IMG/VR virus record: IMGVR_UViG_2541047905_000010
Source: a virus
Lineage: Duplodnaviria > Heunggongvirae > Uroviricota > Caudoviricetes
DNA: 37,360 nucleotides
Strand: one strand, 5' to 3'
Part shown: piece after piece, positions 4,877-33,535 of the stretch
Layout: each line of letters opens with the position of its first letter
Numbering within the stretch: position 1 is the stretch's first letter
Translations under genes and position numbers: made by a program
Notes under the pieces: generated by a model
What the model saw: the letters and a program-made list of their open reading frames with translations, nothing else
Told to the model about the DNA's origin: nothing
Database searches by the model: none

Positions 4877-5037
4877 ACAGCTCCCCGTTTATTATTTATC
4901 TCCTCAGCCAGCCGCTGTGCTTTCAGGGGATTTCTGATAACAGAAAGGCCGGGAAATACCCAGCCTCGCTTTGTAATGGAGTAGACGAAAGTGATCGCGC
5001 CCACCCGGATATTATCGTGAGGATGCGTCATCGCCAT
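4849..5037 (-). CDS. Hypothetical small protein (lambda orf60a-like position)
   Basis: 62-aa ORF overlapping the exo start region; positional assignment. Confidence 0.35.
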
Positions 5038-5708
5038 TGCTCCCCAAATACAAAACCAATTTCAGCCAGTGCCTCGTCCATTTTTTCGATGAACTCCGGC
5101 ACCATCTCGTCAAAACTCGCCATGTACTTTTCATCCCGCTCAACCACGACATAATGCAGGCCTTCACGCTTCATACGCGGGTCATAGTTGGCAAAGTACC
5201 AGGCATCTTTTCGCGTCACCCACATGCTGTACTGCACCTGGGCCATGTAAGCCGACTTTATGGCCTCGAAACCACCGAGCCGGAACTTCATGAAATCCCG
5301 GGAGGTAAACGGGCATTTCAGCTCAAGGCCATTGCCGTCACTGCATAAACCATCGGGAGAGCAGGCGGTACGCATACTTTCGTCGCGATAGATGATCGGG
5401 GATTCAGTAACATTCACGCCGGAAGTGAATTCAAACAGAGTTCTGGCGTCGTTCTCGTACTGTTTTCCCCATGCCAGCGCCTTAGCATTAACTTCCGGAG
5501 CCACACCGGTGCAAACCTCAGCCAGCAGGGTGTGGAAGTAGGACATTTTCATGTCAGGCCACTTTTTTCCGGAGCGGGGTTTTGCTATCACATTGTGAAC
5601 TTCTGAAGCGGTGATGACGCCGAGCCGTAATTTGTGCCACGCATCATCCCCCTGTTCGACAGCTCTCACGTCGATTCCGGTACGCTGCAGGATAATGTCC
5701 GGTGTCAT
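5028..5708 (-). CDS. exo: Lambda exonuclease (Red-alpha, 226 aa)
   Basis: 226-aa ORF matching lambda Exo from memory ([40 protein letters not shown]...). Confidence 0.97.
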
Positions 5709-6490
5709 GCAGCCACCTTCTGCTCAGTGGCTTTCTGTTTCAGGAATCCAAGAGCTTTCACTGCTTCGGCCTGTGTCAGTTCTGACGATGCGCGAATGTC
5801 GCGGCGAAATATCTGGGAACAGAGCGGCAATAAGTCGTCATCCCATGTTTTATCCAGGGCAATCAGCAGAGTGTTAATCTCCTGCATGGTTTCATCGTTA
5901 ACCGGAGTGATGTCGCGTTCCGGCTGACGTTCTGCAGTGTATGCGGTATTTTCGACAATGCGCTCGGCTTCATCCTTGTCATAGATACCCGCAAATCCGA
6001 AGGCCAGACGGGCACACTGAATCATGGCTTTATGCCGTAACATCCGTTTGGGATGCGACTGCCACGGCCCCGTAATTTCTCTGCCTTCGCGGGTTTTGAA
6101 TGGTTCGCGGCGGCATTCATCCATCCACTCGGTAACGCAGATCGGATGATTACGGTCCTTGCGGTAAATCCGGCATGTACAGGATTCATTGTCCTGCTCA
6201 AAGTCCATGCCATCAAACTGCTGGTTTTCATTGATGATGCGGGACCAGCCATCAACGCCCACCACCGGAACGATGCCATTCTGCTTATCAGGAAAGGTGT
6301 AAATTTCTTTCGTCCACGGATTAAGGCCGTACTGGTTGGCAACGATCAGTAATGCGATGAACTGCGCATCGCTGGCATCACCTTTAAATGCCGTCTGGCG
6401 AAGAGTGGTGATCAGTTCCTGTGGGTCGACAGAATCCATGCCGACACGTTCAGCCAGCTTCCCAGCCAGCGTTGCGAGTGCTGTACTCAT
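5705..6490 (-). CDS. bet: Beta single-strand annealing protein (Red-beta, 261 aa)
   Basis: 261-aa [62 protein letters not shown]...; overlaps the exo start. Confidence 0.97.
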
Positions 6491-6495
6491 CCGTT

Positions 6496-6792
6496 TTATA
6501 CCTCTGAATCAATATCAACCTGGTGGTGAGCAATGGTTTCAACCATGTACCGGATGTGTTCTGCCATGCGCTCCTGAAACTCAACATCGTCATCAAACGC
6601 ACGGGTAATGGCTTTTTTGCTGGCCCCGTGGCGTTGCAAATGATCGATGCATAGCGATTCAAACAGGTGCTGGGGCAGGCCTTTTTCCATGTCGTCTGCC
6701 AGTTCTGCCTCTTTCTCTTCACGGGCGATCTGCTGGTAGTGACGCGCCCAGCTCTGAGCCTCAAGACGATCCTGAATGTAATAAGCGTTCAT
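6496..6792 (-). CDS. gam: Gam, RecBCD inhibitor, short form only (98 aa)
   Basis: [21 protein letters not shown]...[10 protein letters not shown]; the reading frame upstream of this Met has an in-frame stop and no start codon. Confidence 0.9.
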
Positions 6793-6867
6793 GGCTGAAC
6801 TCCTGAAAATGGCTGTGAAAATATCGCCCGCGAAATGCCAGGCTGATTAGGAAAACAGGAAAGGGGA

Positions 6868-7158
6868 TTAGCGATTCAGGCCGTTACCGCGTCCGTCGAG
6901 AAAAACTTCCACGAGCAAATCACGGGTATAAGTGCGCTCGATGCCGCGATGCAGATAAAGCCGTCCGCGTAAATTAGCTGATGCAGTCCAGGTACCATCT
7001 TTGTGTTTGACCAGCATTCCTGGCATGACCGCACCTCGATTAACGGTCTGCGTTCCGTAATGTTGATGAACCATAAAAACTCCTGCCCGTAAGCTGGGCT
7101 GCTGAACATATAGAGACTTCTGCGCGTATTCAGGCGGTGGATGGCCGCCGGTTGTCAT
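6868..7158 (-). CDS. Hypothetical protein in the first-gene position of the leftward early operon (96 aa from ATG; track ORF extends to 7278 from TTG with an Arg-rich N-terminus)
   Basis: Only substantial minus-strand ORF between the candidate pL/OL and gam; not recognisably N, kil or cIII. Confidence 0.35.
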
Positions 7159-7347: not shown

Positions 7348-7363
7348 ATTTATTTAAAACTAT

Positions 7364-7430
7364 AGTTGTTTTATCGTCAACAACAAAAGTTGTTTTGTCG
7401 GTTGTTTTAAATATAACTGGTTGTATTTAG
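7364..7430 (-). promoter_or_regulatory. Candidate OL/pL operator-promoter region
   Basis: gttgtt-N8-aacaac at 7365-7384 has the same half-sites as the palindrome between the repressor and cro-like genes; further GTTGT repeats follow at 7389-7425. Confidence 0.35.
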
Positions 7431-7516: not shown

Positions 7517-7546
7517 AGGAAAAGAAAACCCGGCGCGGTTGCCGGG
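7517..7546 (-). terminator. Intrinsic terminator downstream of the lipoprotein gene
   Basis: Minus-strand RNA: CCCGGC-AACCGC-GCCGGG followed by UUUUCUUUUC, 9 nt after the stop codon. Confidence 0.65.
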
Positions 7547-7554
7547 TATGATTA

Positions 7555-7935
7555 TCAGTCAGCCCAACCTGATTTCGAGTTTATTTGGGTTTCTGACATT
7601 GTGTATTTCTTAATCGTGTCATCGTTAAAAAGAATAGTAAGTTCTTTTTTCGTACCGTTCGTTCCATTATGGAATAATCCATAGAATGGAATAAAAGTGG
7701 TGCCATTAACTTTTACTTTTGCAAAGGCGTACTTCCAGATCTCGTTTCCACTGTCAGTATATGAAACAGCATCAGGAGAACCAAAGTAAGATTTAACCTC
7801 ATTCTTGGTTGTTTTACCTTCCTGAAGTTTAGACTGGACACTAATTTCAGTTTCATTTTTGAGTTGCTGGTTGCCTGAAGAAGCACACCCAGCCAATACA
7901 GATGCCATCATGGCAGCGATTAGGATTTTTCTCAT
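7555..7935 (-). CDS. Lipoprotein (signal peptide with LAGC lipobox), BamE/OmlA-like fold suspected; lysogenic-conversion moron
   Basis: MRKILIAAMMASVLAGCASS...; AT-rich codon usage; sits directly downstream of the repressor gene on the same strand and has its own terminator. Confidence 0.8.
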   Translation of the reverse strand: MRKILIAAMMASVLAGCASSGNQQLKNETEISVQSKLQEGKTTKNEVKSYFGSPDAVSYTDSGNEIWKYAFAKVKVNGTTFIPFYGLFHNGTNGTKKELTILFNDDTIKKYTMSETQINSKSGWAD

Positions 7936-8164: not shown

Positions 8165-8854
8165 TTAACCATGCTTCCTGTACGTCTGCGGCATGCTTCC
8201 AATGACCTTACCGAATATGAACACCCGGTTCATCTCGTCTTTCTCGATCGGGTCCCACGGCGAGTAGCTCTTGTTATCAGAGATAACCAGCAGCTTATCC
8301 TTCATCATTTGAAGACGTTTTACATGGGCAGTGTCGTCGTACAGAAACGCATAGATGCCATCACCGTCGAAAGATTTAACAGTGATATCAACGAACAGCA
8401 GGTCACCTGGTTCGATCGTCCCTGACATGCTGTCACCTCGCACGTTAATGATGCGGATATTTTCCGCCTTCCTGCCATCGAACATGTGACGAGCATCGTC
8501 AAACGAGTACTCAACCGAGCGTAGAACTTCTACAAACTCACGGTTGATTACACCTGGCCCGGCACTGACTTCTATATCAAGAACGTCAATTTTGAAGTAT
8601 TTGGAATGGCTGACAGTTGATTGTATTGGTTGCACTGTACTGTCTGACATATTTCCAACGCCAGAAGATAACCATTCTGCGCGCACACCCAAAGCGTTCG
8701 CGATCTCCACGATTTTAGTTGTTTGGTTAGCTTTCCCTGTTTCGATTTTCTGAATAGCAGCCTGGCTAACCCCGACCAAATCCCCAAGCGCCTTTTGTGT
8801 AAGGCCTCGCGCTAATCTGGCTTCTTTAAGTCTTTCTGAGAGTGTTGTTTTCAT
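8165..8854 (-). CDS. Prophage repressor, HTH (XRE) + S24 LexA-like peptidase domain (CI-type, not lambda cI)
   Basis: 229 aa; N-terminal LTQKALGDLVGVSQAAIQKIETGK helix-turn-helix; C-terminal Ser/Lys autocleavage module (GDSMSGT...KRL); divergent from the cro-like gene. Confidence 0.9.
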   Translation of the reverse strand: MKTTLSERLKEARLARGLTQKALGDLVGVSQAAIQKIETGKANQTTKIVEIANALGVRAEWLSSGVGNMSDSTVQPIQSTVSHSKYFKIDVLDIEVSAGPGVINREFVEVLRSVEYSFDDARHMFDGRKAENIRIINVRGDSMSGTIEPGDLLFVDITVKSFDGDGIYAFLYDDTAHVKRLQMMKDKLLVISDNKSYSPWDPIEKDEMNRVFIFGKVIGSMPQTYRKHG

Positions 8855-8958
8855 AGATCAAATGTACAACCAAGGTTTTATTTCATCAAACGAAAATGGT
8901 TGTTGACTAAAAACAACCATAGTTTTAATCTTGATTCGGATTAACCACGGAGGTTGTT
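8855..8958. promoter_or_regulatory. OR / pRM-pR divergent promoter-operator region
   Basis: Palindrome atggttgtt-gactaaa-aacaaccat at 8896-8920 overlapping a TTGACT -35-like hexamer; further ACAACC/GGTTGT half-sites at 8866-8876 and 8952-8957. Confidence 0.6.
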
Positions 8959-30661: not shown

Positions 30662-33209
30662 ACCGGTAGGCGATCTGGTCGTTGATTTGAGTCTGGATGC
30701 GGCCAGATTTGACGAGCAGATGGCCAGAGTCAGGCGTCATTTTTCCGGTACGGAAAGTGATGCGAAAAAAACAGCGGCAGTCGTTGAACAGTCGCTGAGC
30801 CGACAGGCGCTGGCTGCACAGAAAGCGGGGATTTCCGTCGGGCAGTATAAAGCCGCCATGCGTATGCTGCCTGCACAGTTCACCGACGTGGCCACGCAGC
30901 TTGCAGGCGGGCAAAGTCCGTGGCTGATCCTGCTGCAACAGGGTGGTCAGGTTAAGGACTCCTTCGGCGGGATGATCCCCATGTTCAGGGGGCTTGCCGG
31001 TGCGATCACCCTGCCGATGGTGGGGGCCACCTCGCTGGCGGTGGCGACCGGTGCGCTGGCGTATGCCTGGTATCAGGGCAACTCAACCCTGTCCGATTTC
31101 AACAAAACGCTGGTCCTTTCCGGCAATCAGGCGGGACTGACGGCAGATCGTATGCTGGTCCTGTCCAGAGCCGGGCAGGCGGCAGGGCTGACGTTTAACC
31201 AGACCAGCGAGTCACTCAGCGCACTGGTTAAGGCGGGGGTAAGCGGTGAGGCTCAGATTGCGTCCATCAGCCAGAGTGTGGCGCGTTTCTCCTCTGCATC
31301 CGGCGTGGAGGTGGACAAGGTCGCTGAAGCCTTCGGGAAGCTGACCACAGACCCGACGTCGGGGCTGACGGCGATGGCACGCCAGTTCCATAACGTGACG
31401 GCGGAGCAGATTGCGTATGTTGCTCAGTTGCAGCGTTCCGGCGATGAAGCCGGGGCATTGCAGGCGGCGAACGAGGCCGCAACGAAAGGGTTTGATGACC
31501 AGACCCGCCGCCTGAAAGAGAACATGGGCACGCTGGAGACCTGGGCAGACAGGACAGCGCGGGCATTCAAATCCATGTGGGATGCGGTGCTGGATATTGG
31601 TCGTCCTGATACCGCGCAGGAGATGCTGATTAAGGCAGAGGCTGCGTTTAAGAAAGCAGACGACATCTGGAATCTGCGCAAGGATGATTATTTTGTTAAC
31701 GATGAAGCGCGGGCGCGTTACTGGGATGATCGTGAAAAGGCCCGTCTTGCGCTTGAAGCCGCCCGAAAGAAGGCTGAGCAGCAGACTCAACAGGACAAAA
31801 ATGCGCAGCAGCAGAGCGATACCGAAGCGTCACGGCTGAAATATACCGAAGAGGCGCAGAAGGCTTACGAACGGCTGCAGACGCCGCTGGAGAAATATAC
31901 CGCCCGTCAGGAAGAACTGAACAAGGCACTGAAAGACGGGAAAATCCTGCAGGCGGATTACAACACGCTGATGGCGGCGGCGAAAAAGGATTATGAGTCG
32001 ACGCAGAAAAAGCCGTCCGGCGTGAAGGTGTCTGCGGGCGATCGTCAGGAAGACAGTGCTCATGCTGCCCTGCTGACGCTTCAGGCAGAACTCCGGACGC
32101 TGGAGAAGCATGCCGGAGCGAATGAGAAAATCAGCCAGCAGCGCCGGGATTTGTGGAAGGCAGAAAGTCAGTTCGCGGTACTGGAGGAGGCGGCACAACG
32201 TCGCCAGCTGTCCGCACAGGAGAAATCCCTGCTGGCGCATAAAGATGAGACGCTGGAGTACAAACGCCAGCTGGCTGCACTTGGCGATAAGGTCACGTAT
32301 CAGGAGCGCCTGAACGCGCTGGCGCAGCAAGCGGATAAATTCGCACAGCAGCAACGGGCAAAACGGGCCGCTATTGATGCGAAAAGCCGGGGGCTGACTG
32401 ACCGGCAGGCAGAACGGGAAGCCACGGAACAGCGCCTGAAGGAACAGTATGGCGATAATCCTCTGGCGCTGAATAACGTCATGTCAGAGCAGAAAAAGAC
32501 CTGGGCGGCTGAAGACCTGCTTCGCGGGAGCTGGATGGCAGGCCTCAGGTCCGGCTGGAGCGAGTGGAAAGAGAGTGCCACGGACAGTATGTTGCAGGTT
32601 AAAAGTGCAGCCACGCAGACCTTTGATGGTATTGCGCAGAATATGGCGGCGATGCTGACCGGCAGTGAGCAGAACTGGCGCAGCTTCACCCGTTCCGTGC
32701 TGTCCATGATGACAGAAATTCTGCTTAAGCAGGCAATGGTGGGGATTGTCGGGAGTATCGGCAGCGCCATTGGCGGTGCTGTTGGTGGCGGCGAATCCGC
32801 GTCAGGCGGTACAGCCATTCAGGCAGCTGCGGCGAAATTCCATTTTGCGACCGGAGGATTTACGGGAACCGGCGGCAAATATGAGCCAGCGGGGATTGTT
32901 CATCGTGGTGAATTTGTCTTCACGAAGGAGGCTACCAGCCGGATTGGTGTCGGCAACCTGTACCGCCTGATGCGGGGCTATGCGGAAGGTGGTTATGTGG
33001 GCGGTGCCGGAAGTCCGGCGCAGATGCGGCGGGCTGAAGGCATTAATTTTAATCAGAACAATCACGTGGTGATTCAGAACGACGGTACGAATGGTCTGCC
33101 AGGTCCACAGATGATGAAGGCAGTGTATGACATGGCCCGCAAGGGTGCCCGTGATGAAATTCAGACACAGATGCGTGATGGTGGCCTGTTCTCCGGAGGT
33201 GGACGATGA
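30654..33209 (+). CDS. H: Tail tape-measure protein H (851 aa)
   Basis: 851-aa Ala/Gln-rich coiled-coil protein at the tape-measure position. Confidence 0.96.
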   Translation: MAEPVGDLVVDLSLDAARFDEQMARVRRHFSGTESDAKKTAAVVEQSLSRQALAAQKAGISVGQYKAAMRMLPAQFTDVATQLAGGQSPWLILLQQGGQVKDSFGGMIPMFRGLAGAITLPMVGATSLAVATGALAYAWYQGNSTLSDFNKTLVLSGNQAGLTADRMLVLSRAGQAAGLTFNQTSESLSALVKAGVSGEAQIASISQSVARFSSASGVEVDKVAEAFGKLTTDPTSGLTAMARQFHNVTAEQIAYVAQLQRSGDEAGALQAANEAATKGFDDQTRRLKENMGTLETWADRTARAFKSMWDAVLDIGRPDTAQEMLIKAEAAFKKADDIWNLRKDDYFVNDEARARYWDDREKARLALEAARKKAEQQTQQDKNAQQQSDTEASRLKYTEEAQKAYERLQTPLEKYTARQEELNKALKDGKILQADYNTLMAAAKKDYESTQKKPSGVKVSAGDRQEDSAHAALLTLQAELRTLEKHAGANEKISQQRRDLWKAESQFAVLEEAAQRRQLSAQEKSLLAHKDETLEYKRQLAALGDKVTYQERLNALAQQADKFAQQQRAKRAAIDAKSRGLTDRQAEREATEQRLKEQYGDNPLALNNVMSEQKKTWAAEDLLRGSWMAGLRSGWSEWKESATDSMLQVKSAATQTFDGIAQNMAAMLTGSEQNWRSFTRSVLSMMTEILLKQAMVGIVGSIGSAIGGAVGGGESASGGTAIQAAAAKFHFATGGFTGTGGKYEPAGIVHRGEFVFTKEATSRIGVGNLYRLMRGYAEGGYVGGAGSPAQMRRAEGINFNQNNHVVIQNDGTNGLPGPQMMKAVYDMARKGARDEIQTQMRDGGLFSGGGR

Positions 33210-33535
33210 AAACCTTCCGCTGGAAAGTGAAACCCGGTATGGATGTGGCTTCGGCCCCTTCTGTAAGAAAGGTGCGCTTTGGTGATGGCTATTCCCAGCG
33301 AGCGCCTGCCGGGCTGAATGCCAACCTGAAAACGTACAGCGTGACGCTTTCTGTCCCCCGTGAGGAGGCCACGGTACTGGAGTCGTTTCTGGAAGAGCAC
33401 GGGGGCTGGAAAGCCTTTCTGTGGACGCCGCCTTATGAGTGGCGGCAGATAAAGGTGACCTGCGCAAAATGGTCGTCGCGGGTCAGTATGCTGCGTGTTG
33501 AGTTCAGCGCAGAGTTTGAACAGGTGGTGAACTGA
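33206..33535 (+). CDS. M: Tail tip protein M (109 aa)
   Basis: 109-aa ORF; lambda gpM. Confidence 0.95.
   Translation: MKTFRWKVKPGMDVASAPSVRKVRFGDGYSQRAPAGLNANLKTYSVTLSVPREEATVLESFLEEHGGWKAFLWTPPYEWRQIKVTCAKWSSRVSMLRVEFSAEFEQVVN

Follow-up and report, generated by a model that had tools for sequence, protein, structure and literature searches.

The 98-codon gam gene of this lambdoid Escherichia coli prophage is, with a probability of about 0.88, an ordinary gam gene with its normal start, preceded by an untranslated leader and with nothing functional lost. It was analyzed in a window of 37,360 nt (IMG/VR record IMGVR_UViG_2541047905_000010, the whole stretch of DNA considered here), which shares approximately 97% identity with phages such as PhiR26_1 over most of its first 25 kb. 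In the proposed arrangement, gam would come second in the leftward early operon, after a KilR-like gene that replaces lambda kil and cIII; the leader between the two, being non-coding, would tolerate 1-nt indels and would have acted as a boundary between modules. The GamL frame of phage lambda, 138 codons long, would require both a lambda-type kil, which carries its ATG, and the shorter leader allele, and would represent a minority, lineage-restricted configuration. Annotations of the arrangement seen here, with a 98-aa Gam, already exist for phage 933W, for many other phages and for thousands of E. coli genomes in RefSeq; the arrangement carries little biological weight and is an ordinary mosaic feature.

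The gam gene and its product

In the window, gam is located at 6496..6792 on the minus strand, immediately upstream of bet (5705..6490, minus strand) and exo (5028..5708, minus strand) in the leftward early operon, and phage PhiR26_1 and E. coli SE11 are annotated alike. Lambda gam occupies the same place before bet and exo and has the same leader hairpin. The ATG (6792..6790) lies 7 nt from the Shine–Dalgarno (SD) motif AGGAG at 6800..6804 and is presumably the start codon used in vivo; lambda GamS (residues 41-138 of the annotated 138 aa) is also 98 aa long and has the same SD and spacing. The gam product matches the Gam family models of Pfam (PF06064; positions 1-98 of 98, E 3.4e-65, 216.8 bits against a cutoff of 25) and PHROG (PHROG 259; 1-98 of 98, E 1.2e-60), each of which comprises 98 positions and is matched end to end, and the GamS chains of PDB entries 5MBV and 2UUZ match it over residues 1-98 (E 2.5e-61). 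The coding sequences of the window and lambda differ at 3 nt, two of which change the protein (L>I and S>A), and, with two amino acid differences from lambda GamS, the window Gam would be expected to bind and inhibit RecBCD.

Gam exists as two forms, GamL and GamS, and the structure of GamS bound to RecBCD was solved by cryo-EM (eLife 2016, PMC5218532). GamL is treated in that work as a real isoform, active from a plasmid: when expressed, both forms lower the ciprofloxacin MIC approximately four-fold in E. coli, and in Klebsiella the differences between them are small, with GamL somewhat more effective in some strains (PMC5218532). The initial annotation regarded the short form as the RecBCD-inhibiting species; the solved complex does contain GamS, but activity is not confined to the short form, since GamL also lowers quinolone MICs. 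In the papers that could be read, no direct evidence was found for the form made by lambda during infection. A 2025 Genome Research paper uses the name GamL for an unrelated protein of phi80.

Under an alternative reading, a functional long isoform is ancestral and was lost here by a junction inside gam, with a functional difference from lambda as a consequence, for example in inhibitor potency or through a second target. Both isoforms have been reported, a slight difference between them appears in K. pneumoniae disc assays (PMC5218532), and the lambda reference annotation lists the 138-aa product, which speaks against a short-only view. The 98-position family models point the other way, as do the comparisons below, and we consider this reading improbable.

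The reading frame upstream of the gam start

Walking the gam frame upstream of the ATG gives 18 sense codons followed by a TAA at 6849..6847 (minus strand). Within the 18 open codons there is no ATG, GTG or TTG, and the GamL-type ATG, expected in frame approximately 40 codons upstream of the GamS methionine, is absent from the window both by the frame walk and by alignment with lambda. The window was aligned directly with the lambda reference (NC_001416; gam 32816..33232, kil 33187..33330). Near-identity extends from the gam stop codon to a TAA (6870..6868) that lies 75 nt before the ATG, and the sequences are unrelated beyond it. Between these points lies the 75-nt leader (6793..6867, minus strand), which is not in the gam frame as it is in lambda: there is an extra T at 6809..6806 in addition to the TAA at 6849..6847. 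At the variable site (6806..6811, minus strand), lambda reads cacagcTA-TTTcaggag and the window cacagcCATTTTcaggag, that is, TTTT at 6809..6806 where lambda has TTT, and C at 6811 where lambda has T. The leader differs further at 6867 and 6840, with T in the window and C in lambda. In lambda, the leader shorter by 1 nt and the kil gene upstream together create a 40-codon in-frame extension (GamL), which is missing in the window.

The initial annotation was borne out in its observations by this alignment. Its central claim that only the short Gam is encoded holds, as the 98-aa protein is the sole product possible from a standard start codon, and the frame does close without an alternative start, the TAA being its 19th codon. 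The lambda sequence that it gave proved right at the variable site, where the 1-nt difference said to shift the frame is the one extra T. Similarity to lambda, placed at about 70 nt upstream of the methionine, ends at 75 nt, at the TAA (6870..6868) of an unrelated ORF, as had been proposed.

The upstream gene and the mosaic junction

The gene preceding the leader (6868..7074, minus strand) encodes a putative KilR-like inhibitor of cell division (FtsZ) of 68 aa. Its longest ORF extends to 7278, while the start at 7074 agrees with RefSeq, which in E. coli SE11 annotates a 207-nt gene for a 'phage encoded cell division inhibitor protein' corresponding to window 6868..7074. PHROG 294 ('Kil protein for bacterial septation inhibition') matches residues 60-135 of the longest ORF (E 1.8e-38), and NCBIfam NF008465 ('FtsZ inhibitor protein') matches with E 3.6e-17 and 62.1 bits, under its curated 92-bit cutoff. 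The 68-aa product covers positions 1-67 of the 73 in the NF008465 profile, and its gene occupies the place in the leftward operon that corresponds to that of lambda kil; with 62 bits against a curated cutoff of 92 in this model of the Rac prophage KilR type, it counts as a relative but falls short of an equivalog. No similarity was detected between this product and the 47-aa Kil of lambda. The swap therefore replaces one cell-division inhibitor gene by another that is unrelated to it and apparently has the same role.

The mosaic junction itself lies at 6868..6871 (minus strand), where similarity to lambda begins with cTAA, on the stop codon that ends the upstream gene. A junction positioned exactly on a stop codon is a normal module boundary. 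The same KilR-like/leader/gam junction is found in E. coli SE11 and prophages of many other strains, as well as in phages PhiR26_1, PhiR34_1 and Turner; SE11 is 100% identical to a 301-nt query spanning the junction. The flanking immunity regions of these prophages and phages differ, and SE11 has other repressor genes. Stx2 phage 933W (NC_000924) carries the same +1 leader allele as the window and an annotated gam of 98 aa. Together with other Stx phages, 933W is 99.4% identical to the window from the kil stop codon onward, the matches starting at query position 527-530 (window 6871-6874); upstream, it has a lambda-type kil with the would-be GamL ATG and cIII, where the window has the KilR-like gene.

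The initial annotation had placed a recombination junction inside the ancestral 5' part of gam and had made it the cause of the loss of the long form. A mosaic junction does lie approximately 75 nt upstream of the methionine; the word 'ancestral' finds no support, for the reasons given below on divergent relatives, and neither does the single cause. The extra T and the kil swap are independent, because each occurs without the other in other prophages, and either alone removes the long frame. The GamL ATG of lambda (33232) lies inside the 3' end of kil, so the window, in which lambda-type kil is absent, has no long-form start of any kind. In lambda, no SD precedes the GamL ATG (the preceding sequence is gcttataaaaa), a further point against an ancestral and functional long isoform.

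The KilR-like ORF and gam (6793..7074, minus strand) share a reading frame, and only the TAA codons at 6870..6868 and 6849..6847 lie between them. A longer Gam could accordingly be imagined to arise by read-through from the KilR-like gene, from a non-canonical start such as an ATT in the leader, of which there are two within the 18-codon open stretch, or by programmed frameshifting. Two consecutive TAA stops make read-through very unlikely, the ATT codons are preceded by neither a slippery sequence nor an SD while a strong SD stands at the ATG, and leader length varies between relatives. The shared frame is a one-in-three event and probably a coincidence, and we regard a longer product made by any of these routes as very improbable.

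Frequency of the leader alleles and of the long frame

Exact-pattern scans found the same 33-mer with the extra T in at least 120 IMG/VR contigs, and the lambda allele likewise in at least 120. Across 5426 complete E. coli genomes, the leader allele of the window was counted in 2590, with a 45-mer unable to seed on the alternative allele, and that of lambda in 900; the short-only allele is thus approximately three times as common as lambda's, which speaks against an ancestral and functional long isoform. The KilR-like/gam junction was present in 2165 of the 5426 genomes (at least 80% coverage).

These counts also bear on the accuracy of the sequence. The 1-nt difference sits in a T-run, a typical site of homopolymer sequencing or assembly error, and the true sequence might on that account be in lambda's frame. 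The extra T is not such an error, because the 33-mer recurs in the IMG/VR contigs and the 45-mer in the complete genomes, and the identical allele stands in phage 933W; a linked T>C substitution accompanies it, and even without the indel there would still be no start codon, as lambda-type kil is absent. The possibility of an error is negligible.

A set of 83 sequences was assembled from 80 IMG/VR loci whose Gam is identical to that of the window, together with lambda, PhiR26_1 and the window itself. Their leaders comprise 44 of the lambda type, 32 of the +1 type and 7 unrelated ones, and the long frame is kept in only about 39 of the 83 sequences of this identical-Gam set. Among the matches listed, the 112 scored contigs with the +1 leader have a KilR-like gene in 72 cases and a lambda-type kil in 39, and the long frame is absent in 111 of them. 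Contigs with the lambda leader (116 among the matches listed) have lambda-type kil in 108 cases and a KilR-like gene in 8. Where lambda kil and the lambda leader are combined, the long frame is open in 99 of the 108 contigs listed and closed in 9. This predominance of the open frame speaks for an ancestral long form and against a short-only view, but the 99 contigs are closely related sequences and not independent events.

A third frame-breaker, the change ACCCCC>ACCCC directly after the stop codon of lambda-type kil, was found in 12 loci with the lambda leader and kil; by this separate loss of 1 nt from the C-run, the GamL frame is closed in IMG/VR loci that include L212, L242, L248 and L255. 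At least three independent frame-breaking events have therefore been tolerated, which argues against a long isoform that is ancestral and functional. One locus, L125 (IMGVR_UViG_2713896771_000008), combines the +1 leader and a KilR-like gene with a 130-codon in-frame opening upstream of gam; the opening presumably results from a further indel that fuses gam with another frame of the gene before it.

DNA-level counts were used throughout, since gene callers choose starts by the ribosome-binding site and protein lengths are uninformative about an open frame; even for a genome in which a lambda-type leader and lambda-type kil leave the long frame open, the gam annotated by RefSeq is 297 nt long. 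No arrangement is commoner in E. coli prophages than short-only Gam, and lambda's longer frame is the exception. For annotation, recombineering and cell-free work, the comparisons point to the 98-aa GamS-type protein as the product that is conserved; the 138-aa reference annotation of lambda describes a minority frame in which breaks recur among close relatives whose 98-aa gene is intact.

Divergent relatives and the direction of change

Seven divergent Gam genes were compared (two from Citrobacter and one each from Klebsiella grimontii, Raoultella, Pseudescherichia, Escherichia sp. and an unclassified enterobacterium). Their products share 70-76% amino acid identity with that of the window, and all start at the GamS-equivalent methionine behind an AGGAG-like SD; the motif TTCAGGAG is kept in most of these loci. 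None of the seven has a long in-frame extension, and the sole upstream start among them is a GTG two codons before the methionine in Raoultella. These starts do not support the description of the long 5' part as ancestral and weigh against the corresponding reading; the lambda long frame looks specific to the lambda lineage.

Two outgroup leaders could be aligned over the segment preceding the SD, which reads CACAACCAAATTTTAGGAG in Citrobacter and TACAACCAAATTTCAGGAG in Klebsiella, compared with CACAGCCATTTTCAGGAG in the window and CACAGCTATTTCAGGAG in lambda. The outgroups have the window's C and not lambda's T, and at the indel they are longer, not shorter. Because the window has this C in common with the outgroups and differs less from them in length, parsimony favours its allele as the older, a further argument against an ancestral long form; it is moderately likely that lambda's shorter leader allele is the derived one, as judged from a short, low-complexity stretch.

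We put at even odds the more specific proposal that lambda GamL is a recent, lineage-specific N-terminal extension, in which a 1-nt deletion in the leader brought the ATG inside kil into the gam frame. If so, the 138-aa Gam of lambda found in textbooks would be an accident of evolution or an overprinted extension of very recent origin, and the leader crossed by GamL would be a conserved untranslated element of hairpin and T-run that regulates gam-bet-exo expression. The 25 GamL leader codons that do not overlap kil contain four variable sites, two synonymous and two not, which are too few to reveal a coding signature.

Two further loci, L339 (E. coli ECMA0423) and L340 (Shigella flexneri SFBU1023), contain a gam copy with 83% amino acid identity from which the usual ATG is missing. 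The sole candidate for an in-frame start is a GTG that precedes the matched region by nine codons and is itself preceded by AGGAAGGAG, and from its position there is therefore no lambda-like extension there either; these loci represent either a variant N-terminus or a decaying copy.

A GTDB scan returned mostly lambda DNA contamination in unrelated taxa, and its informative part was the seven divergent enterobacterial loci. Assemblies of unrelated taxa (L323-L338 and L350-L355), including an Oxalobacter MAG, Pseudoxanthomonas, Enterococcus, Shewanella, Kitasatospora, Neobacillus and others, carry a Gam approximately 94-100% identical in protein to that of the window. Most of the contigs are short or of low coverage, and a few are near lambda length (about 48.4-48.5 kb); the sequences are almost certainly contamination by lambda control or cloning DNA.

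The leader hairpin

Independent 1-nt indels occur in the leader of other prophages and leave the 98-aa gene unaffected, and the DNA from the junction to the gam start codon behaves like a leader that is not translated. It contains a terminator-like hairpin (6816..6843, minus strand), in which GCCTGGCATTTCGCGGGC (6843..6826) is followed by GATATTTTCA. The hairpin has a 5-pair stem, short for such a structure, and an 8-nt loop; with the following GATATTTTCA it has the form of a G+C-rich hairpin with a T-run. A terminator consensus scan found two sites, where 1.2 are expected by chance. The predicted fold energy is -9.5 kcal/mol (z -2.4), compared with -11.7 for the lambda version (about 33135..33162), in which the G-U pair of the window is G-C. 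Folded as a whole, the 101-nt leader region is not more stable than its shuffles (z -0.87), and the local hairpin alone stands out.

For divergent loci from Citrobacter, Klebsiella and Pseudescherichia, folding also predicts a hairpin in the corresponding position, where it lacks the T-run; in an alignment of only eight sequences, three of the seven pairs show compensatory changes. The hairpin at 6843..6826 may terminate transcripts, as its form suggests, and could be the equivalent of the lambda tL2c terminator, which maps near here. No terminator features are annotated in the lambda records examined.

The neighbouring control region

A probable PL promoter with operators, serving the KilR-like gene, gam, bet and exo, is located at 7350..7395 on the minus strand. 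Its sequence, AACAACTTTTGTTGTTGACGATAAAACAACTATAGTTTTAAAT (7395..7350, minus strand), closely resembles that of the PR side at 8893..8935 on the plus strand. The near-identical promoter/operator blocks read TTGAC[G/T]A[T/A]AAAACAAC[T/C]ATAGTTTTAA and contain AACAAC/GTTGTT inverted repeats; flanking the repressor region, the two blocks look like PL/OL and PR/OR by their motifs. No ORF for an N-type antiterminator is apparent between the putative PL and the KilR-like gene, and gam would be the second gene of the PL transcript.

A gene for a 126-aa lipoprotein (7555..7935, minus strand; PHROG 3135, with a weak BamE-domain match below the cutoff) lies between the cI-like repressor gene (8165..8854) and the putative PL, in the position of lambda's rexAB. 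It is followed by a terminator, a clear hairpin with a T-run (cccggcaaccgcgccgggttttctttt, about 7519..7545), and looks like a lysogen-expressed accessory (moron) gene.
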